A stretch of 64,000 nt of DNA. It comes from Thermoplasmata archaeon. Lineage in GTDB: Archaea > Thermoplasmatota > E2 > JACPAO01 > JAHFTW01. A model generated the notes under the pieces. The model saw only the letters and a program-made list of their open reading frames with translations, was not told the origin of the DNA and did not search any database. Shown here piece by piece: positions 1,035 through 10,800 of the stretch. The position numbers and the translations under genes were made by a program. Where the stretch lies: the NCBI GenBank assembly GCA_034667725.1, contig JAXDQS010000010.1, positions 320,001 to 384,000 on the forward strand, given 5' to 3'. Each line of letters opens with the position of its first letter. The stretch's first letter is position 1.

Positions 1035-2231
1035 TCAACCCTGCACGGCCCGCCGGGCCGCGACCATCTGGTAGGCGGCGACCGTCAAGGTCACGACGAC
1101 GACCAGGAGCGTCAGGCCGGCGGCGACCGTGAACAGGCTGGACTTCCAGTCGAACGCGACCGGCGGCGGGCGGGGCTCGACGTTGGCCGTCATGACGGCG
1201 CCGTCAATCAGCTCGTTGCACTCGTTGCGGGCTTGCAGGCCGGCGTAGCCGGGCTGGACGTCGTCCCACCACAGGTCGAGCACGAACGCCTCGGGGGCGG
1301 CCTGCGCGAAGGTCATCTCGTAGGTGGCAAGGACAGCGGGGCCGTGGACCTCGACGTAGTAGTCGCCGAACTGGTCGAGCGGGACCTCGAGGGTCGCGGC
1401 GGCGGGCGCGTTGAGGGCGGGCGCCAAGGTGAAGTTGCCGAGGGCGGCGCCGTCGGGGGCGTACACGGTGAACGCGAGGGCGGTCGAGCCGGCGGGCGCC
1501 ATGCTCTCCGATCGGGCGGACAGGGTGGCCTTGCCGAACAGCCGCTCGTTGGGGATGGCGTGCACGCGGGAGTGGGCCTCCTCGCGCACCAGGTAAGGCG
1601 TGCCGTCGGCGGGCTCGGCATGGCTCCACGAGGCCGGCCCCTGGCGGCTGGCGCCGGCGGGGGAGCCGACGCGCAGGTGCATCTCCCAGGCGTCGGCGTC
1701 GCCGGCCGCCTGGATGGCCCCGGTGGCGTCGTCCCGGAAGCCGCGCTGCGTGACGAACCAGGTGGCCTGGAACGCGTCGGCGCCCGTGACCGGGTCCAGG
1801 ATGGGCGCGGGCCCCAGGCGCACGGTGGCGTCGATGGTGGTGGCCATCATGGTTGCCGGCAGCGTTTGGGAGAACCCGGAGGCGGCGGCTGGCACCAAGG
1901 TGTCGGCCGCGATGCTGTCGGGCGTGCGGTTGGCGGGCGCGAACTCGCCGACGTCGATGGTCAGCGGGACGGTGCCCCAGTTGCCCAAGGCCTGGATGCG
2001 GCCCTTGTTGAGGTCGGGGCGGAGCTTGGCCCAGCCGCATCCGGAGAACGGCTCCTGGACCTGGCTGGCGGCGTCGGCCCCCACCGCGAAGTGGCCCGAG
2101 GCGTGGGTGCCGGCCGCGTAGTAGTAGTCGATGCCGTCGACGTTGTACATCGCCTCCGCCTGGCTGGCGCCGGGCGCGGGCAGAGCCAGGAGCCCCAGGA
2201 GGACGGCCAGGGCGGGCAGCAGGCCGCGCAT
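1035..2231 (-). CDS. Secreted protein with C-terminal membrane anchor (398 aa)
   Basis: MRGLLPALAVLLGLLALPAPGA signal peptide, C-terminal TM; TGATG coupling to upstream gene. Confidence 0.8.
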   Translation of the reverse strand: MRGLLPALAVLLGLLALPAPGASQAEAMYNVDGIDYYYAAGTHASGHFAVGADAASQVQEPFSGCGWAKLRPDLNKGRIQALGNWGTVPLTIDVGEFAPANRTPDSIAADTLVPAAASGFSQTLPATMMATTIDATVRLGPAPILDPVTGADAFQATWFVTQRGFRDDATGAIQAAGDADAWEMHLRVGSPAGASRQGPASWSHAEPADGTPYLVREEAHSRVHAIPNERLFGKATLSARSESMAPAGSTALAFTVYAPDGAALGNFTLAPALNAPAAATLEVPLDQFGDYYVEVHGPAVLATYEMTFAQAAPEAFVLDLWWDDVQPGYAGLQARNECNELIDGAVMTANVEPRPPPVAFDWKSSLFTVAAGLTLLVVVVTLTVAAYQMVAARRAVQG

Positions 2232-2851
2232 CACGCGTCCCTCCGTCCGTGCAGCAGCCCGGCGACCACTTCGAGGTCGACCTGGCCCGCCTGGAACTTG
2301 AACAACCCGGCGCCGAGGGCGGGGATCAACGAGGCGGCCGCGGCGTACCATCCCCACGAGATGTTGGTGGAGGTGTAGCCGGTCGGCTCGTCCAGCCGCG
2401 CCGAGAACTGCGACTCCACGCCGTGGGCCGCCATCGACTCCGGCATCCACAGCCAAGCCATGACGGCGGCGGCCGCGATGGCCGCGACGGCCACGGCCAC
2501 GAGCGCCAAGGCGATCCGCCGCCGAATGACGCGGTCCACGAACGGAATCTCGCCGAGGAGGACCAGCCCCAAGGCGACGGCGGCCGTGGCAAGGGCGGCG
2601 GGCAGGTACGTGGCCAGGCGCTCGGCCAGCTCGGCGTCCGGCTGGACGTCGCCGGTCCAGCGGTCGGCGTTGTAGGCCAGATGGTGCCGGACGATGCCGT
2701 CCTCGCCTTGGTTGTAGGCGCCGTCCGGCGCCGTCTGGCGGCCGCTGCTGTGGTCGTACTCGAACCAGGTCAGGGACCAGGCGCCGGCCAGCCCGGCAAG
2801 GGCGAGGATGGCCATGGCCGCGGCGCCCAGGCTCCGTTCGTGCGGCTTCAC
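2231..2851 (-). CDS. Integral membrane protein (~4 TM)
   Basis: Four hydrophobic segments; GTGA overlap with upstream stop; GGAGGTG RBS. Confidence 0.75.
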   Translation of the reverse strand: MKPHERSLGAAAMAILALAGLAGAWSLTWFEYDHSSGRQTAPDGAYNQGEDGIVRHHLAYNADRWTGDVQPDAELAERLATYLPAALATAAVALGLVLLGEIPFVDRVIRRRIALALVAVAVAAIAAAAVMAWLWMPESMAAHGVESQFSARLDEPTGYTSTNISWGWYAAAASLIPALGAGLFKFQAGQVDLEVVAGLLHGRRDA

Positions 2852-4965
2852 GGCGCGCACCTCCGGAGAGCCAGGCAGGCGTCGACGGCCTGGACCGTGG
2901 CCGCCGGCCCCGCCTCTTGGCTGGGGGAAGCGCCTTGCAGCACGGGCATCCGGACGTACATCTGCGGGATGGCGGTCGAGTTGGGGAACGCAACCCCCGG
3001 GACCGGGAACACCGTGCGCGGGTCGAGCTGGAGTGTCGGCAGCAGCAGCTGGGCGTCACCGTCGAACGACACCACGACGTCGGAGGGGGTCGTGGCCGAG
3101 GCGTGGTCCGGGTAGGGGTACTGGAACAGCCAGAGCGCGAGGCGGTGGCCTTCGGGGATGTGGACCTCGAGGGGCTCGAACTCGACCTGGGCGACGTAGC
3201 GTTCTCCAGGCTGCAAGGCCTGGGGCTCCTCGCCGCCGGCGTAAAAGCGGAGGTTCATCTGGGCGTGGCCGACGACCGGGATGCCGGCCGGCTTCCACGT
3301 CATGACGGTGGAGCCTTCCGCGATGAGCGTGCGGACGATGGTGGGCGAGCGCACCAGCCCTTTGGGGTCCATGTCGAACAGCCACGCCGCCAGGAAGCCG
3401 CCCTCGCCGGTCACCTTGAAGGGGACCTTGGCCTGGGGCATGCCCGAGAGGTGCAGGCCGTCGGGGAACGGCTCGGAGACGAGCTGGACGATGTTGGTGG
3501 GCATGGCGCCGGTCGAGGCCTTCAGGGTCGCCTCGCCGGCGGCACCGCTCCCGAGCACGCCGTCGGCGCCCAAGGCGAGCGACTGCCACGCGGGGGCCGC
3601 CGGCGGGAACGCGTCCGCGTTGCGCCAGAAGCCCAGGTCGTCCTGGACCTGGATGGCCGGCCCGGTGTCCACCTGCGCGTCGCCGAGCAGGTGCTTGTCG
3701 AACCAGCGGGCAAGGATGTCGCCGAAGTCCATGCGGCAGGCGAGCACGACCCAGCCGGGCGCCCCGGGCTGGCAGTTGCCGTCGGGCGTCTGGTGGCCCC
3801 ACTGGCCGTACCACTCCTTGACCTCCAAGCCCTTGGCGCGCAGGGCGAGGTTGAACGGGACCGCCGAGTGCGGGTCCACGTTCCAGTCCTGCAGGCCGTG
3901 GACCAGGAAGACGCTGCCCTTGTAGTTGGCCAGGACGTCGTCGCGGTGGTCGCGCTCGACCCAGTAGGAGCTGGCGGCCGCCATGCGGCTGCCTTCCGCC
4001 GCCGCGACCTGGCCAAGGGCCTGGCCTTCGAGCGCCTCGGGGCACAGCAGGTTCTGGCGGTCCTGGTACTCCTTGCGGCCGGTGGCATGGCCGATCCCTG
4101 CCGGGGGAACCGGCCACGGCTCGCCGAGCAGCGGCCCGACGTTCTCCTCCCACAGGTCGCCGCCGGCGGGGAACTGCTCGCTGAAGCCGAAGCCCCAGTA
4201 GACGTCCTTGCTGTGCATGATGGCGGCGCGGGTCTCGGCGCTGCCGTTGTGCAGCATCAGGTCGTAGACGTCCGGAAGCCCGGAGATGGGGACGATGGTC
4301 TTGAGGTACGGGTTGCCGGTGCCGGCCGCCGTCCACGGCGTCGAGCCGTCGTACGACACGCCGATCATGCCGATGTTGCCGTTGCTCCAGGGCTGCTCGC
4401 CCAGCCAGGTCAGCGCCTGGTCCAAATCCGCGGTCTCGTCGGGGCCGAACAGGTCCATGCAGCCGCCCGCCGTGCCGGTGCCGCGCACCGCAAGCTGGAC
4501 GACCGTGTAGCCTCGCGGCAGCATGTTCTGGACCAAGAGCGGCGTCATCTGGGTCTGGTTCTCCATGGTGAGCCCGTCCTGCTCGTAGTACGGGCCCGCG
4601 TCCACGATGATCGGTGTCGGCGCCGTGTGGTTGTCGGGGCGCCAGACGGCCATCACGATGTCCACCCGCGCGTCGTCGCCTTGGGACCCGAGCACGCCCG
4701 TGAAGCCCATGGCGTCGGCCGCCGGCCCGTAGGCGGGCCGCGCCGACTCCAGGGTGATGAGCTCAGGCCGCATCGCCGGCCGCAGCGAGCCCGTTACCAG
4801 GGGCAGGCTCCCGGCGGCGCCGGTCATGTACGCGCCCTCGAAGACGCCCGGGTTCCGGTACGGCGAGTCGGTGTCGAACCCGTCGAACTCGTCGTACGCC
4901 TCCAGGCATCCGCCCAAGGTCAGCGCCAGCAGCAGGCCCGTGATGGCAAGCGACCGCGACCGCAT
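2848..4965 (-). CDS. CocE/NonD family (S15, X-Pro dipeptidyl-peptidase-like) hydrolase, lipoprotein
   Basis: Lipobox LGGC; RGTGTAGG, WSNGNIGMIGVSYDG nucleophile motif, HGLQDWNV, GQWGH. Confidence 0.88.
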   Translation of the reverse strand: MRSRSLAITGLLLALTLGGCLEAYDEFDGFDTDSPYRNPGVFEGAYMTGAAGSLPLVTGSLRPAMRPELITLESARPAYGPAADAMGFTGVLGSQGDDARVDIVMAVWRPDNHTAPTPIIVDAGPYYEQDGLTMENQTQMTPLLVQNMLPRGYTVVQLAVRGTGTAGGCMDLFGPDETADLDQALTWLGEQPWSNGNIGMIGVSYDGSTPWTAAGTGNPYLKTIVPISGLPDVYDLMLHNGSAETRAAIMHSKDVYWGFGFSEQFPAGGDLWEENVGPLLGEPWPVPPAGIGHATGRKEYQDRQNLLCPEALEGQALGQVAAAEGSRMAAASSYWVERDHRDDVLANYKGSVFLVHGLQDWNVDPHSAVPFNLALRAKGLEVKEWYGQWGHQTPDGNCQPGAPGWVVLACRMDFGDILARWFDKHLLGDAQVDTGPAIQVQDDLGFWRNADAFPPAAPAWQSLALGADGVLGSGAAGEATLKASTGAMPTNIVQLVSEPFPDGLHLSGMPQAKVPFKVTGEGGFLAAWLFDMDPKGLVRSPTIVRTLIAEGSTVMTWKPAGIPVVGHAQMNLRFYAGGEEPQALQPGERYVAQVEFEPLEVHIPEGHRLALWLFQYPYPDHASATTPSDVVVSFDGDAQLLLPTLQLDPRTVFPVPGVAFPNSTAIPQMYVRMPVLQGASPSQEAGPAATVQAVDACLALRRCAP

Positions 4966-4968
4966 GGC

Positions 4969-7005
4969 TCAGCTCCTGGTGGCCACGCGCACTGGGGAGC
5001 CGCCCGTGACGCCCGCGCCCAAGACCTCCCGCAGGACCTTGTCCTTGCCCTTGCCGACCAGGACGTCCTCGAGGACCTCCAGCACGCCGCGGGCCTGGAC
5101 GATCTCCACCCGGCTGCGGTACACGGGGTTCAGCAGGATGTCGTTGGCGTTGGCCGTCGGCACCACGACACGGGCGAAGCCCGAGTCCACGGCCGACTCG
5201 ATCAGCTGCGTGATGCCCTTGACGGCCTTGACGGCGCCGGTGACGGTGAGGCCGCCGATGACGACCGTGTCCTGGCGCACCTCGACGCCGTGGACGGCCG
5301 ACAGGGCGCTGACCGCCATGGCCAGGCCGCAGCCGCGCGCGTCGACGCCGTCCTGCGGGATGACGCTCTGGACGTGCAGGTCGCTGTCCGCGACCGTCGT
5401 GCCGGTGACCTTCTTGAGCCACGCCTCGACGATCTCGGTCTCGGCCGGGGCGCTGCCTTCGAGGCCGCCCCCGAACGCCATGAGGCCGCCCTGGCGCGAC
5501 AACGGCGCCGTGACGGCGGCGTTGACGGGCACCACGAGGCCGGCGGGCTCGCCGACCTCGCCCGTGCCGACCAGGCCGGCGCCGTGCGCCATGCCGACGA
5601 GGGCGTCGGTGGAGCGCAGGCCGTCGTGGCTGCGGCGCTCCTCCAGGCCCTGCTCGGCGATCTGCTGCTCCAGGCTGCGGCTGAGGCGCTTGGCCTCGCG
5701 CACGTCCTCGGCGGTCACGACCTTGCTGCCGCGCGCCTGCGCGACGTCGCCGGCCGTGCGCACCAGGCCGCCCAGCTCGCGCAGGCGGAGGGTGAGCTTG
5801 CCGCGCTGGCCGCTGCGGCGCTGGCCCTCGAGGATGACCTCGGCGATGGCGTGGGCCTCGAACTTGGCGATGCGGCCGTCGTTCTTGACCTCCTGCGCCA
5901 CGAAGCGGCACAGCTTGAGGCGGTTGTCGTGGTTGTCCGGCATGGTGCTGTTGACGTACACCTCGTAGCCGTAGCCGCGGATGCGGGAGCGCAACGCCGG
6001 GTGCAGGCCGGTGTGGCGGCCGTCCGGGGTGTGGATGGCGTCGAGGTTGCCGGCGGCCACCAGGATGAAGTCGCAGGGGAGGGGCGCGGTCTTGACCATG
6101 GCGCCGCTCGAGGTCTCGGACTGGCCGACGATGGTGTATTGGCGGTCCTGCATCGCGGTCAGGAGCGCCTGCTGGCTGTCGAGGCGCAGCACGTTGATCT
6201 CGTCGATGAACAGGATGCCCTTGTGCGCCTTGTGGATGGCGCCGGGCTCGACGCGGTCGTGCGCCGGCGTCTCCAGGCCGCCAGACTGGAACGGGTCGTG
6301 GCGCACGTCGCCCAAAAGGGCGCCGGCGTGGCTGCCGGTGGCATCGACGTAGCGGGTGTGGTTGGCCTGCTTGGGGTCGTACTCCAGCAGCACCTTCGGG
6401 ACCAGGTAGGGGGTCGCGTCCTTGGCGTTGCGGAACAGCGCGAACAGGAAGGCGGCCACCAGGACGGCGATGCAGAACACCATCACGGTGAGCAGCGTGA
6501 AGCCCTCGACGAAGAAGCCGGCGAAGCCCAAGCCCAGGATGGCGCCCACCGCGATCCACTCGACCAGCTGGCGCGCCACCTTCTTGCGGCGGGCGAGCCG
6601 GCGCATCTTGGCCGCGACCACCTTGCCGTTGCCCGGCGCCGTGGTGTTGACGAGGGGGGCGTTGGGGTCCTTCTTGTTGTGGACCATGAGGACGTCCTCG
6701 AGCTGCTGCGGCGGGAGCATCTCCTTCAGCGCCTTCGCGATCATGGACTTGCCCGTGCCGGGGTCGCCGATCAACAGCAGGTTGCGCTTCTGGGCGGCGG
6801 CCTTGCGGGCCACGGCGACCGCCTGGTCTTGGCCGATGACCTGCTCGATCAAGAGCTCGGGGACGGGGACGTTGTCCGAGTCCTGGATGCCGGACTGGCG
6901 GTCCACCCACTCGTAGGGATCATTGATCATCCGGTCGGAAGCGGCGGTCGCCTTGGCGTGGCCGTTCGTGGGGGCGGTCTGGGAGGCCTTGGTCCTGGTG
7001 GTCAT
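4969..7005 (-). CDS. lonB: Archaeal membrane LonB homolog with degenerate protease active site
   Basis: QVIGQD, Walker A GDPGTGKS, two TM helices, DPFQSGGLETP, Walker B LFIDEIN, ALRSRI, LRLRELGGLVR; catalytic Ser and Lys replaced. Confidence 0.9.
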   Translation of the reverse strand: MTTRTKASQTAPTNGHAKATAASDRMINDPYEWVDRQSGIQDSDNVPVPELLIEQVIGQDQAVAVARKAAAQKRNLLLIGDPGTGKSMIAKALKEMLPPQQLEDVLMVHNKKDPNAPLVNTTAPGNGKVVAAKMRRLARRKKVARQLVEWIAVGAILGLGFAGFFVEGFTLLTVMVFCIAVLVAAFLFALFRNAKDATPYLVPKVLLEYDPKQANHTRYVDATGSHAGALLGDVRHDPFQSGGLETPAHDRVEPGAIHKAHKGILFIDEINVLRLDSQQALLTAMQDRQYTIVGQSETSSGAMVKTAPLPCDFILVAAGNLDAIHTPDGRHTGLHPALRSRIRGYGYEVYVNSTMPDNHDNRLKLCRFVAQEVKNDGRIAKFEAHAIAEVILEGQRRSGQRGKLTLRLRELGGLVRTAGDVAQARGSKVVTAEDVREAKRLSRSLEQQIAEQGLEERRSHDGLRSTDALVGMAHGAGLVGTGEVGEPAGLVVPVNAAVTAPLSRQGGLMAFGGGLEGSAPAETEIVEAWLKKVTGTTVADSDLHVQSVIPQDGVDARGCGLAMAVSALSAVHGVEVRQDTVVIGGLTVTGAVKAVKGITQLIESAVDSGFARVVVPTANANDILLNPVYRSRVEIVQARGVLEVLEDVLVGKGKDKVLREVLGAGVTGGSPVRVATRS

Positions 7006-7009
7006 GCGG

Positions 7010-8845
7010 TCACATCTTCTTCTTGCGTCCGGCGCGGACGTGGGACTTGCGTTTCGCGGTGGCGGCGCTCACCGCCACGATGGCGGAGGCGGTCAAGGAG
7101 CCGGCAACGCCCATCACGACGCTCGAGGAGGTCGCGGGGGCGGGGTTCGGGGGTGGCGGCGGGTTCGGCAGGCCGGCGGCCGCGGGGCCGCGCAGCTCGG
7201 TCACTTCGATGAGCTCGGCGAAGTCGACGAAGCCGTAGTTGCCGACGGCGTAGAACTCGCGCTGGTAGAACTCCCCCAGCGGGCGGTTCTGGTACTCGAA
7301 GGGAGCCTGCGGCAGCTCCAGGAAGTCGTCGGACAGGTCGTTGTAGAGGCTCACGGGCTGGCTGTTGAGGAAGCCGTCCTTCTGCCGCAGCGCCTGGTCG
7401 CCGACCCGGAGGTCAATCTCCTCCAAGAGGCCGTAGTGCTCGTCGATGGCCACGATGGCCTTGAAGTACTCCGGCTTGTAGGCGTAGCTCGCGTCGTCGG
7501 GCCAGTCCGCCACGCGCTTGAAGACCAGGTGGATGACGCCGGAATACTCCCGGTAGATCATGTCCTGGATGTTGGTCTCCGCAAGCGGCATGTTGGCGTA
7601 CACGATCTGCAGCGCGTCGCCGTACGACTGGGGCTCGCCCCAGGCGACCAGGCGGGCGGCCGGGTCGTACTTGCCGTAGGCGCCGTCGAGGCGGACGCGG
7701 GTGGCGTTGCCGGCCACGACGACCTCGGTGGTCAAGAGCGCCATGCGGCCGTCCGAGCGCACGCCCAGCTTCGGGCGGCCGCCCGCGAGCGGCGCCTCCC
7801 CGATGTGCTCGGGCGCGCCGCCCTCGGGCCGGAAGCGGAACATGTGGATTTCGCCGGGCCGCGCCGTCGGGTCCCAGCTTGGCGCACCCGCGCCCTCGGC
7901 GACCAGGCAGCCGACGTACAGCCAGCCTTCGGAGATGACCGGGTTGGTGCTGGTCGCGCACGGCGCGATGACGTTGGCCGCCGCGGACTTGTAGGGGTCG
8001 CCGACGTTGGCGCTGGTGGACACCCACGAGATGGCGCCCCGGGCGGTGGCCGCGCCGGACGCCGGCGCGTCCTCGGCGGCCGCGGCCGGCTGGGCGGCAA
8101 GCGGGTCCCTGACTTTTTCCAGCAGCTCCTTGGCTTGGCCGGCCAGGCTGGGGTCGCGGGCCGCCCCGGCGCCGGCCGCCGCCAACGGCTGCTCGTTCCA
8201 CAGCAGGACGACGTGGTCGCTCAACGGGTCGTAGGCGAACCAGGTCTGGCCGATGCGGTTGCCGGCGTGCAACGCGTCGATGTAGTCCACGTTGTACGAG
8301 CCGTCCTGGTTGGCGTTGATGTCCTGCAGGCTGCCGAACTTCTGCGCCGCGATGACGTAGCGCCAGCCGCCCGTGCCGTTGCCGCCATTGTCCGGCGGGA
8401 CGGCGTAGAGCGAGGAGATGAACACGTGGCCGTACGGGTCGAGCGCGATGCCGGGATGCTCGCCGGTGGCCGTCGAGGGGATGCCGTCCGGCTGGAAGTA
8501 GGGCTTGTCGAGCCACGACGCGCCATGGTCCTGGCTGGTGTGCGTGGTGTACTGCTGGCCCCCGCGGCTGCGTGCCTCGGGACCGTCGCCGGCGCTGGAG
8601 CCGTGCAGGCTCGCGAAGATCATGTTGTTGACGTCGTCGGGGTCCACGACGATGGCCGGCGACCCCAGGGCGTCCGCGCCGTCCCATGCCTGGATGGGGC
8701 ACTGCCCGTTGGTCGTGTCCGGGCAGGCGATGAAGATGTCGTACTGGACGGCGTCCCGCGGCTCCGACTGCGCCAAGGTCATGGTGGGGGCTGCCGCCAG
8801 GAACAGGCAGCAAGCGACCAAGACGGGGCGATTCACTCCGAGCAC
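7010..8845 (-). CDS. Secreted, membrane-anchored protein with Asp-box/BNR motif (beta-propeller-like)
   Basis: Signal peptide, SQDHGASW Asp-box, Pro-rich linker, C-terminal TM + basic tail; start may be 8836. Confidence 0.8.
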   Translation of the reverse strand: MLGVNRPVLVACCLFLAAAPTMTLAQSEPRDAVQYDIFIACPDTTNGQCPIQAWDGADALGSPAIVVDPDDVNNMIFASLHGSSAGDGPEARSRGGQQYTTHTSQDHGASWLDKPYFQPDGIPSTATGEHPGIALDPYGHVFISSLYAVPPDNGGNGTGGWRYVIAAQKFGSLQDINANQDGSYNVDYIDALHAGNRIGQTWFAYDPLSDHVVLLWNEQPLAAAGAGAARDPSLAGQAKELLEKVRDPLAAQPAAAAEDAPASGAATARGAISWVSTSANVGDPYKSAAANVIAPCATSTNPVISEGWLYVGCLVAEGAGAPSWDPTARPGEIHMFRFRPEGGAPEHIGEAPLAGGRPKLGVRSDGRMALLTTEVVVAGNATRVRLDGAYGKYDPAARLVAWGEPQSYGDALQIVYANMPLAETNIQDMIYREYSGVIHLVFKRVADWPDDASYAYKPEYFKAIVAIDEHYGLLEEIDLRVGDQALRQKDGFLNSQPVSLYNDLSDDFLELPQAPFEYQNRPLGEFYQREFYAVGNYGFVDFAELIEVTELRGPAAAGLPNPPPPPNPAPATSSSVVMGVAGSLTASAIVAVSAATAKRKSHVRAGRKKKM

Positions 8846-8932
8846 CGATCCACCGCGGCTCCACAGGGCCGCGACCCCTGCGTCGCATTGCCGGGATAGA
8901 AAGCTTGGGGTGGCGTTGTGTTGCCCCGGCGG

Positions 8933-10654
8933 CTACGCGACGCGCTCCGGGTGCCCCCACCGCGGCACGACGGCCCGGTGCGCCAATCCTTGCGCCCGGC
9001 ACAGCCGCTCGTACCGGTCGCCCGTCAAGTCGGGGCGCTCGCTGTGGATAGGCACCAGCGTCTTGGGCCGCAGCGTCTCCAGGATCTCCTGGATGTCCTC
9101 CTGCGCGAGGTGCCCGCTCACGTGGGTCCGCCGCGGCTCGTGGTCGGGCGCATTGAGGTTGAAGGCGCGCAGCCAACGGTGCAGGCGGAACTGGTCCATC
9201 TCCATGTCGTCGTTGTGCGGCTGCGTCTGCGAGTGGATGTAGAGGCCGCCCGCCGCCGACCGGTCGGGGAACACCTCGAACAGGTCGGTCATGTTGAACA
9301 GCGTCAGGCTCACGAGGTAGCCGCCGGGGTCGCGGGCCACCTCGGCGGCGGTCACGACGTGCGGGTCGCCGAACGGCACCGGCTGGGTGATGACACGGTC
9401 GCGGCCTTGGTATTCGTCGCGGCCGCCCAGGAGCTCGAACTCCCAGCGCGCCAGGTCGCGGCTGGCAAGGTCGAGCCACTCGGCAGGCGACACCTGGATG
9501 AAGTCGATGGCGAGCCGCTGCTTGTCCGCGATGGGCATCTCGCCTGGGCGGCGCAGCAGGTGCGAGCCGCCGCGCACCAGGACGCCAAGGTGCGGGCTGG
9601 TGCGCCAGTCCGGCGCCTCCTCGCAGCCAGCCTCACGGAGCGCCGACAGCAAATGCGCCTGCTTCGCCGAGATCAGCAGCCGGCGGCCGACCGAGGCGGC
9701 GACGCGGTGCAGGCTGCGCAAACGGTCGAGGTCGCGCGGCGGGTAGCCGACGCCGACGAACGGCGGGCCGCCAGCGGCCTCGTGCGCCTCGACGAGGGCG
9801 CGGACCTCGTGCTCGACGTCGGACTCACGGTCGGTGCCATGGCCATGGCGGCCGTGGTCGCTCACCCGCGTGCCCTCCATGATGAGCACGTCGGCCTCGG
9901 CGGCCGCCTTCAGGAACGCGGCGGTCTTGGCGGGGTCGGAGCCATGGCGCCGGAAGTCGCCGGTGTACACGACCTTGGTGTCGCCGTCCGTGAGCACGAA
10001 GGCGCCGGCGCCCTGGATGCTGTGGTCCACGGCATGGAACGTCAGGGCCCACTTGCCATGCGTGACGGCCTGCGGGCTGGTGACGAACGGACGCTCGACG
10101 CGCGGGTCGTCGTCGGAGTAGCGCACGTCGCCGAGGCCGCCCTTCTTGTTGCGCTGCAGGACGCCGCGGACGCGCAGGTCGGTGTAGTCGGTCTCCCAGC
10201 CGCCGACCCCCGTGGCCTCGACGCTGCGGAGCGTGGCAAGGCTGAGGGGCGAGGTGACGATGGGCAGGTCGCGGCGCAGCAGCCCAATGAGGCCGCAGTG
10301 GTCCACATGGGCGTGACTGACGAGCGCGAAATCGACGGGGGAGTCGCCCGACACGCCGCCGAGGTCCGGGCGGTAGAGGCGGGGCAACGCGCCGCGCCAC
10401 GGGATCAGGTCGAGCGCGCCCAGGTCCGCGGCCGCCATGTGGGCGCGCGGCTTCTGGAAGGCGTCGAAGTAGTCGTTCCAACCCGGCCGGCGCTCGAAGG
10501 CCGCGGGCGAGAAGCGGTCCTCGCCGCCCATCGTCTGCGCGGCGCCGAAGCGCTTGCCGACGTCCAGCATGACGCGCAGGCCGGGGGCTTCGAGAAGGAA
10601 GGCATTGCCGCCGATCTCGCCGACGCCGCCGAAGCCGGTGAGCGTGACGGTCAC
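8933..10654 (-). CDS. MBL-fold beta-CASP hydrolase, RNase J-like
   Basis: GGVGEIGGN, SHAHVDH, DHSI, YTGDF, HVSGH, PIHSE motifs; GGAGG RBS before GTG. Confidence 0.85.
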   Translation of the reverse strand: MTVTLTGFGGVGEIGGNAFLLEAPGLRVMLDVGKRFGAAQTMGGEDRFSPAAFERRPGWNDYFDAFQKPRAHMAAADLGALDLIPWRGALPRLYRPDLGGVSGDSPVDFALVSHAHVDHCGLIGLLRRDLPIVTSPLSLATLRSVEATGVGGWETDYTDLRVRGVLQRNKKGGLGDVRYSDDDPRVERPFVTSPQAVTHGKWALTFHAVDHSIQGAGAFVLTDGDTKVVYTGDFRRHGSDPAKTAAFLKAAAEADVLIMEGTRVSDHGRHGHGTDRESDVEHEVRALVEAHEAAGGPPFVGVGYPPRDLDRLRSLHRVAASVGRRLLISAKQAHLLSALREAGCEEAPDWRTSPHLGVLVRGGSHLLRRPGEMPIADKQRLAIDFIQVSPAEWLDLASRDLARWEFELLGGRDEYQGRDRVITQPVPFGDPHVVTAAEVARDPGGYLVSLTLFNMTDLFEVFPDRSAAGGLYIHSQTQPHNDDMEMDQFRLHRWLRAFNLNAPDHEPRRTHVSGHLAQEDIQEILETLRPKTLVPIHSERPDLTGDRYERLCRAQGLAHRAVVPRWGHPERVA

Positions 10655-10800
10655 GCCGCGGCCTCCGCGTGGCGGACGGCGGCCCCGCAGGTAGAGCAGG
10701 TCAGGAGGAAGCAGGCCCGCCGATGGGTCGGGCAGGGCGCCGACTGGACGGTGCGGGGGCTGCAGTGCCCGCACCCTGCCAGGATGCCGTTCCCCTCCAT
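10651..10800 (-). CDS. Putative zinc-finger microprotein (49 aa)
   Basis: MEGNGILAGCGHC...CPTH...C...CSTC; stop overlaps next start (GTGA); TATA-like CTCAAGTAT ~25 nt upstream. Confidence 0.5.
   Translation of the reverse strand: MEGNGILAGCGHCSPRTVQSAPCPTHRRACFLLTCSTCGAAVRHAEAAA

Follow-up and report, generated by a model that had tools for sequence, protein, structure and literature searches.

A LonB paralog without the catalytic dyad and its surface-protein partner gene in a Thermoplasmata archaeon

We analysed a 64,000-nucleotide stretch of a Thermoplasmata archaeon genome (hereafter the window; assembly GCA_034667725.1, contig JAXDQS010000010.1, forward-strand positions 320,001 to 384,000), with a G+C content of about 72%. 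Its minus strand carries a tightly packed operon of five genes, separated by 3–4 nucleotides or overlapping, in the order A, LonB-like, C, D and E. The LonB-like product, P0001, is a relative of archaeal LonB, which, to our knowledge, counts as the only membrane-bound ATP-dependent protease in archaea. P0001 has lost both residues of the Ser–Lys catalytic dyad and kept the motifs of the AAA+ motor. It belongs to what appears to be a conserved LonB offshoot that gave up proteolysis, retained the motor and became tied, gene for gene, to an uncharacterised family of surface proteins.

LonB architecture and the replaced catalytic dyad

P0001 scored 634.6 bits against the LonB equivalog model TIGR00764 (cut-off 516.6; model positions 6–601 of 608), and its Pfam domains were Mg_chelatase/AAA, LonB_AAA-LID and Lon_C (PF05362, 5.3e-11). 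When PDB sequences were searched with phmmer, LonB of Thermococcus onnurineus aligned across the whole protein (3k1j, E = 4e-151; 4zpx, E = 5e-124), while the LonB protease domain of Archaeoglobus fulgidus (1z0c, E = 4e-29) matched residues 479–658, the C-terminal 180, so that P0001 appears by alignment to end in an S16-type Lon protease domain. RadA and BrxL chains were distant matches of this C-terminal domain (5lkq, 8eil and 8emc). Against the family models of such proteins, P0001 scored far below the cut-offs and is a member of none of them (RadA TIGR00416, 36.3 bits against 403; BrxL TIGR02653, 33.6 against 628; YifB/ComM-type TIGR00368, 68 against 362).

A reading made from the letters of the sequence and its open frames (the sequence-only reading) had described canonical Walker A, Walker B, pore-loop and Arg-finger motifs and a two-helix transmembrane insertion; all of these were found, and the motif coordinates agreed with those that it gave (Table 1). 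The transmembrane hairpin is formed by hydrophobic segments at residues 148–166 and 171–189, and it is likewise kept in homologs from each of the three subclades, A, B and C, that are described below.

Two elements distinguish P0001 from archaeal LonB. One is a seven-residue insertion, TPDGRHT, ahead of the Arg-finger helix; in subclade A, P327, D328 and G329 of this insertion hardly vary, and P0003, a second dyad-less paralog from the same genome, carries a comparable one. The other is the loop joining beta1 and beta2 of the protease-like domain, which reads GTGExGEPAG, is five residues longer than its LonB equivalent and stands out as the best-conserved motif there, with G, G, G, E, P and G invariant over subclades A, B and C. 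In Lon proteases, the beta1–beta2 loop is a mobile element that flanks the active and substrate site (PMC9569914).

The alignments of P0001 to 3k1j and 1z0c were free of gaps around both catalytic positions, and they bore out the loss of Ser (to Gly558) and of Lys (to Leu601) that the sequence-only reading had proposed; both substitutions were thereby confirmed against Thermococcus and Archaeoglobus LonB alike. In the equivalent alignment columns the canonical LonB of the same genome, P0002, has GVEGDSAS and GGVTAKIE, whereas P0001 has GVDARGCG and KGITQLIE, and the Ser–Lys dyad pattern ([E/D]GDSA[S/T] ... K) is absent from it. With Gly558 and Leu601 at the dyad positions, P0001 is a LonB-family homolog by descent and is not to be filed as a LonB protease.

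A clade of dyad-less homologs

As homologs we took the best 120 hits from a search of 5.8 billion proteins. Nearly all came from Thermoplasmatota metagenome assemblies, and those that carry a public name are called ‘ATP-dependent protease LonB’ or ‘Lon-like ATP-dependent protease’. All of these hits lacked the Ser, the Lys or both, bar two fragments that do not span both positions; conservation counts given here refer to 118 dyad-less homologs. They could be grouped by pseudo-active-site motif into three subclades: A, which includes P0001; B, which includes P0003; and C, in which Met or Arg mostly replaces the Lys. Together, A, B and C formed a single clade (support 100 in FastTree; Shimodaira–Hasegawa-like approximate likelihood ratio test support 100 in IQ-TREE), which in both trees was nested among the canonical LonBs of archaea and had a stem branch of 0.43–0.47 substitutions per site.

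The residues that replace the dyad vary. At the Lys position the dyad-less homologs have Leu, Met, Gln, Val, Glu, Asp, Ala or Arg, and because this position varies so widely there is no conserved general base; nor did the homolog alignment reveal any new conserved His or Lys in the protease-like domain beyond those common with canonical LonB. The residue following the lost Ser, which is Ala in canonical LonB, is always Leu or Ile in subclades B and C; in subclade A (n = 45) it is Cys in 21 members, Ser in 9, Thr in 8, and Val, Ala or Leu in 7. One subgroup of subclade A (P0030 and P0034–P0038) keeps the Lys (TQKIE) and has Gly followed by Thr at the Ser site (EGTG).

Conservation of the motor is strict. 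The Walker A Lys, the Walker B Asp-Glu pair, the sensor-1 Asn, all three Arg in ALRSRIRG and the Arg residues of sensor 2 are invariant in 118/118 homologs, and the pore-loop position is Phe or Tyr in every one. Conservation is lower in the protease-like domain than in the AAA+ core, yet constraint there is clear. For P0001 and an 86%-identical ortholog in L037, a single pair compared by the NG86 method, the ratio of non-synonymous to synonymous substitution rates (dN/dS) was 0.16 over AAA+ residues 198–450 and 0.14 over the protease-like domain, which is under purifying selection. The view taken in the sequence-only reading, that this is not a decaying pseudogene, thus held on each count: the frame is open and full length, more than 115 homologs share the loss within one clade, and dN/dS is low in the very domain that lost its dyad.

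Three subclade-B proteins (P0069, P0093 and P0120; 891–908 amino acids) have, in their gene calls, an extra N-terminal region of about 250 amino acids with several hydrophobic segments; neither BLASTP nor hhalign found similarity between these extensions and operon protein D. Frames of 1073–1276 amino acids that looked like natural fusions of the partner and LonB-like proteins were rejected as out-of-frame, Arg-rich read-through typical of high-G+C DNA.

We searched 151 Thermoplasmatota genomes and found canonical LonB in all 151. A profile of the A/B/C protease-like domain gave 259–264 bits for dyad-less copies of the window’s own genome against 167 for the canonical protein, and at E ≤ 1e-60 it identified 16 dyad-less copies. 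They came from 10 of the 151 genomes, spread over four family codes (the window’s own family and order, plus two others) and 7 of 95 genera. The paralog was not found in the complete Thermoplasmatales-like genomes searched; extra LonB hits there were AAA-only proteins of about 500 amino acids scoring about 300 bits, and were rejected as full-length dyad-less LonB. Such AAA-only LonB-core proteins occur at L016–L021 (genomes G050, G056, G095, G038 and G080), and L021 also has a stand-alone 193-amino-acid frame with an intact GDSAS Lon protease domain.

The assembly that contains the window spans 2.32 Mb in 26 contigs and is about 90% complete. A search of it for TIGR00764 LonB-type proteins recovered the canonical P0002 at 873 bits, its dyad intact, so that the canonical lonB whose presence the sequence-only reading had proposed to look for does exist beside the dyad-less gene. 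The same search recovered P0003, the full-length subclade-B paralog on contig 6 (621 bits), and a further LonB-like gene that is cut by the start of contig 10 and known from its N-terminal piece only.

The partner gene and the operon

The gene directly upstream of P0001 encodes P0123, which has a signal peptide, a beta-propeller ectodomain, a Pro-rich linker, one C-terminal transmembrane helix and a short basic cytoplasmic tail. No Pfam family matched it. Its AlphaFold2 model (mean predicted local distance difference test score, pLDDT, 82) is an all-beta propeller, for which the fold search returned weak, generic matches to six-bladed sialidase-type propellers (template-modelling scores, TM, 0.3–0.48); no function could be read from the fold matches of this partner or of protein E.

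By coordinates, an A-family gene lies directly upstream, on the same strand, of 16/16 dyad-less copies in the 10 genomes, and the A-family profile and the dyad-less domain profile matched exactly the same 10 of 151 genomes. A-family homologs precede dyad-less LonB in subclades B and C too. Identity between partners follows the LonB-like subclade, at about 40% within and about 25% between subclades. The window’s own genome has three pairs of A-family and LonB-like genes: that of the window, P0124 followed by P0003 at the start of contig 6, and P0125 followed by the N-terminal LonB-like fragment at the start of contig 10. P0124 and P0125 are 42% identical to one another, and each is 25–26% identical to P0123. 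No A-family gene was close to canonical lonB in this genome. The pairing of A-family and LonB-like genes persists through three ancient subclades; the obligate upstream partner gene, the operon and the additional module copies (two or more) all go beyond what the sequence-only reading had described. A fourth A-family gene, on contig 6 at positions 7565–9406, is not followed by a LonB-like gene.

Gene C starts 3 nucleotides past the stop of the LonB-like gene and encodes a hydrolase of the S15 family with a signal peptide, a lipobox-like LTLGGC motif and a kept nucleophile motif, GVSYDG. An equivalent stands at the same place in the P0021, P0018, P0033, P0005 and P0006 loci. At least four more S15-family paralogs, 28–37% identical to gene C, lie elsewhere in the genome, away from the LonB-like genes (contig 10:277481-279019 and three sites on contig 3).

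Neither D nor E matched a Pfam family. For gene D, an ESM Atlas model resembles eukaryotic four-helix tetraspans of the claudin/PMP22/clarin type (TM 0.66–0.77), a likeness that may serve as a lead only; its sequence-feature hits were solely unnamed membrane proteins of actinobacteria and Thermoplasmatota. The model of gene E (pLDDT 80) matched only generic beta-sandwiches.

The five-gene order is repeated at the P0021, P0018 and P0033 loci of subclade A. The P0005 and P0006 loci show LonB-like–C–D–E, or LonB-like–C–D on the shorter contig, and their contigs end before A. Accessory genes differ by subclade (S15 peptidase, further propellers, small lipoproteins) and are consistently secreted or membrane proteins. 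Upstream of the operon, 88 nucleotides away, lies a minus-strand gene at 8933-10774 for a 613-amino-acid protein of the metallo-beta-lactamase/beta-CASP type (RMMBL), probably an RNase J/CPSF-like enzyme. This gene was not found beside the module at the other loci examined.

Table 1. Genes and sequence elements of the operon in the window, with the further modules of the genome (window coordinates unless a contig is named)
Feature	Position	Strand	Basis or remark
Gene E, 399 amino acids	1035..2234	(-)	Signal peptide, beta-sandwich ectodomains, C-terminal transmembrane helix; 4-nucleotide overlap with gene D stop
Gene D, 209-amino-acid polytopic membrane protein	2231..2860	(-)	Overlaps gene C end; homologs in L009, L010
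Gene C, S15 (X-Pro dipeptidyl-peptidase / CocE-NonD type) hydrolase	2848..4965	(-)	PF02129 1.8e-46, PF08530 1.5e-14
Dyad-less LonB paralog P0001	4969..7005	(-)	Open frame, 678 amino acids; TIGR00764, Pfam, PDB alignments
KGITQLIE (residues 596-603)	5197-5220	(-)	Pseudo-active-site motif, Lys side
Leu601 codon at catalytic Lys position	5203..5205	(-)	Alignment
GVDARGCG (residues 553-560)	5326-5349	(-)	Pseudo-active-site motif, Ser side
Gly558 codon at catalytic Ser position, Cys559 next	5332..5334	(-)	Alignment
GTGEVGEPAG (residues 480-489), beta1–beta2 loop of protease-like domain	5539..5568	(-)	5-residue gap in 3k1j
Arg-finger region LRSRI (residues 338-342)	5980..5994	(-)	R339, R341, R343 invariant 118/118
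TPDGRHT insertion, 7 residues (326-332), clade-specific, before Arg-finger helix	6010..6030	(-)	Gap in 3k1j alignment
Walker B LFIDE (residues 265-269)	6199..6213	(-)	D268, E269 invariant 118/118
Pore-loop region DPFQSGGL (residues 237-244), aromatic F239	6274..6297	(-)	F/Y in 118/118; flanks invariant
Transmembrane hairpin, two helices (residues 148-189), between Walker A and Walker B	6439..6564	(-)	Kyte-Doolittle 1.95 and 2.94
Walker A GDPGTGKS (residues 80-87)	6745..6768	(-)	G, P, G, T, G, K, S invariant in 118/118 dyad-less homologs
Partner gene A, P0123, 611 amino acids	7010..8845	(-)	Stop 4 nucleotides before LonB-like start
Two further partner + LonB-like modules	contig 6 L022:1826-3853; contig 10 start L023:19-519 and 1119-3284		

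A putative motor and its alternatives

On sequence grounds, P0001 has the marks of a pseudo-protease paralog: it descends from an active ancestor, has lost the dyad, has kept the ATPase motifs, shows selection and coexists with an active paralog. That it is a functional pseudo-protease with an active ATPase is, to judge from these features, very likely, and the core proposal of the sequence-only reading, that a functional LonB paralog has given up proteolysis and retained the AAA+ motor, is supported. The status of P0001 as a pseudo-protease is well supported, while the mechanism is one that we infer, as are the roles of unfoldase, dislocase or translocase offered in the sequence-only reading.

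Among known systems, P0001 has in common with archaeal LonB (3k1j/4zpx; A. fulgidus 1z0b-1z0w; MEROPS S16) the domain order, the transmembrane hairpin within the AAA+ region, and the ATPase and pore-loop motifs. It differs in having Gly and Leu for Ser and Lys, in the longer beta1–beta2 loop (+5) and the 7-residue insertion, in its obligate link to a surface partner gene, and in occurring beside a canonical LonB. The chloroplast FtsHi proteins (PMC8197885) are likewise inactive paralogs of a membrane AAA+ protease, which have lost the catalytic residues of the protease domain, keep the AAA+ module and coexist with active paralogs; however, they derive from an M41 metalloprotease of a eukaryotic organelle, whereas P0001 is of the S16 Ser–Lys type and archaeal. 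The motor role of FtsHi is experimental, whereas P0001 is known from its sequence, and the likeness is one of functional analogy, not homology of the event. A looser parallel is given by RadA/Sms, ComM and BrxL, ring-forming ATPases that contain a Lon protease fold without proteolysis; those are soluble and act on DNA, whereas P0001 is a true descendant of LonB, carrying a membrane anchor and pore loops of the protein type. LonC of Meiothermus taiwanensis (4fw9) is also a Lon subfamily that lost one activity and kept the architecture; it is reported to retain the protease without ATP-powered unfolding (PMC3391209). It is the mirror case of P0001, whose ATPase motifs are intact and whose protease dyad is lost.

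Solved LonB is a hexameric ring, with its transmembrane hairpins and pore entrance towards the membrane. P0001 would accordingly be expected to form a LonB-like hexamer on the cytoplasmic face of the membrane, its pore entrance facing the bilayer, and to use ATP to grip and thread polypeptide, engaged at the membrane face, without cleaving it. Such a pulling motor, an unfoldase or dislocase, might act on, or be recruited by, the transmembrane helix and tail of partner A and of the surface proteins from the same operon (S15 peptidase, D and E). Candidate segments for engagement are the transmembrane helix and basic tail of A, and those of E, which has the same topology; alternatively, A and E may recruit and regulate the motor. 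The dead protease domain would be retained as ring and chamber, with the remodelled, conserved beta1–beta2 loop beside the former active site; the conservation of this loop, together with its described position in Lon, suggests that the groove retains a role in binding or gating. Taken together, the data make it probable that P0001 is a non-proteolytic membrane AAA+ unfoldase or dislocase with a surface partner, descended from LonB. The specific mechanism, a dislocase working with its partner, we put forward more tentatively, as plausible but less likely than not.

Other explanations could account for a conserved, dyad-less LonB. We think it unlikely that P0001 joins canonical LonB in its hexamers as a regulatory or structural subunit, tuning their activity or choice of substrate, rather than building a machine of its own. 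Canonical LonB is present in every genome with dyad-less copies, the two proteins have identical AAA+ interface motifs, that of the Arg-finger region among them, and rings mixing active and inactive subunits are established for FtsH/FtsHi (PMC8197885). On the other hand, the dyad-less paralogs of one genome may number as many as three or four; every one comes with a cognate partner gene of its own, and none is linked to the canonical lonB locus; the clade-specific insertions lie by the Arg-finger helix and in the beta1–beta2 loop, and the long stem branch parts the clade from canonical LonB. Strict conservation of the pore-loop aromatic and of the second pore-loop segment, equal to that of the nucleotide-binding residues, would be expected if polypeptide is gripped or translocated and would be unneeded in a passive scaffold. 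This disfavours, to a similarly low probability, an ATP-regulated assembly platform that anchors and organises propeller A, the S15 peptidase, D and E via 12 transmembrane helices without threading, although such a platform would suit the strict synteny, in every subclade, with genes for secreted and membrane proteins, the retained hairpin, and the established use of inactive Lon-like domains as ring scaffolds in RadA, ComM and BrxL.

The sequence-only reading had also raised Cys559 as a possible new nucleophile, which would make P0001 a protease still. This suggestion has been weakened, and we now consider it very improbable. It could draw on the residue at this +1 position, which is Cys, Ser or Thr in 38 of the 45 subclade-A sequences where canonical LonB has Ala, and on the pairing of Thr at +1 with a kept Lys in P0030 and P0034–P0038; but the position is occupied by Val, Ala or Leu in the other 7 members of subclade A and by Leu or Ile throughout B and C, and no general base, whether the old Lys or a new His or Lys, is conserved in the domain. 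A sequencing error or a recently inactivated pseudogene has practically no probability left: nothing besides the two substitutions speaks for either, and both are refuted by the full-length open frame, the more than 115 homologs from independent assemblies, the deep monophyletic clade and dN/dS values of 0.14–0.26.

Several points weigh against the reading of P0001 as a non-proteolytic motor with a surface partner. The same sequence data would also suit a purely structural role, or rings shared with canonical LonB. Relatedness among the sampled genomes (7 genera, 4 families) means that 10 genomes are not 10 independent events, and the dN/dS estimate comes from one pair in a genome of 72% G+C, by NG86. 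The Cys, Ser or Thr directly after the lost Ser in most of subclade A makes residual or unusual catalysis possible there. A few members retain one dyad residue (Ser with Met or Gln; Gly with Lys), which implies that the two losses were not uniform across the clade.

If the motor does extract or pull membrane proteins, it would offer a simple prokaryotic model for non-degradative AAA+ dislocases. A more far-reaching proposal, which we regard as rather doubtful, is that dyad-less LonB and its propeller partner constitute a new archaeal envelope machine, in which the cytoplasmic ring would grip the transmembrane helix and tail of the partner, or of another surface protein from the operon, and spend ATP to extract surface proteins or transmit force across the membrane, as a counterpart of dislocation of the endoplasmic-reticulum-associated degradation type or of the FtsHi import motor, duplicated and diversified to at least three specificities per cell.

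MEROPS holds unspecified non-peptidase homologues of S16 (PMC9569914). The full-text literature searched, with a coverage that is incomplete (for example, for the MEROPS lists of non-peptidase homologues), contained no description of a dyad-less archaeal LonB or of the partner family, and the conserved dyad-less family with its surface partner is apparently undescribed so far. For the Pfam-less partner family and for operon genes D and E, the genomic context is a first functional handle. There is also a problem of annotation: because TIGR00764 scores are above the cut-off, public records label the dyad-less proteins ‘ATP-dependent protease LonB’, yet the Ser–Lys mechanism is impossible for them.

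Several bacterial proteins named LonB are likewise without the Ser–Lys dyad (P0135, P0143/P0313, P0144, P0151 and P0152, from a Planctomycetota metagenome-assembled genome, Thermincola sp. and metagenome contigs). In the trees they join the archaeal dyad-less clade as its sister, with long branches and a placement that is not robust. Among LonB-like proteins, loss of the dyad may extend beyond the archaeal A/B/C clade.

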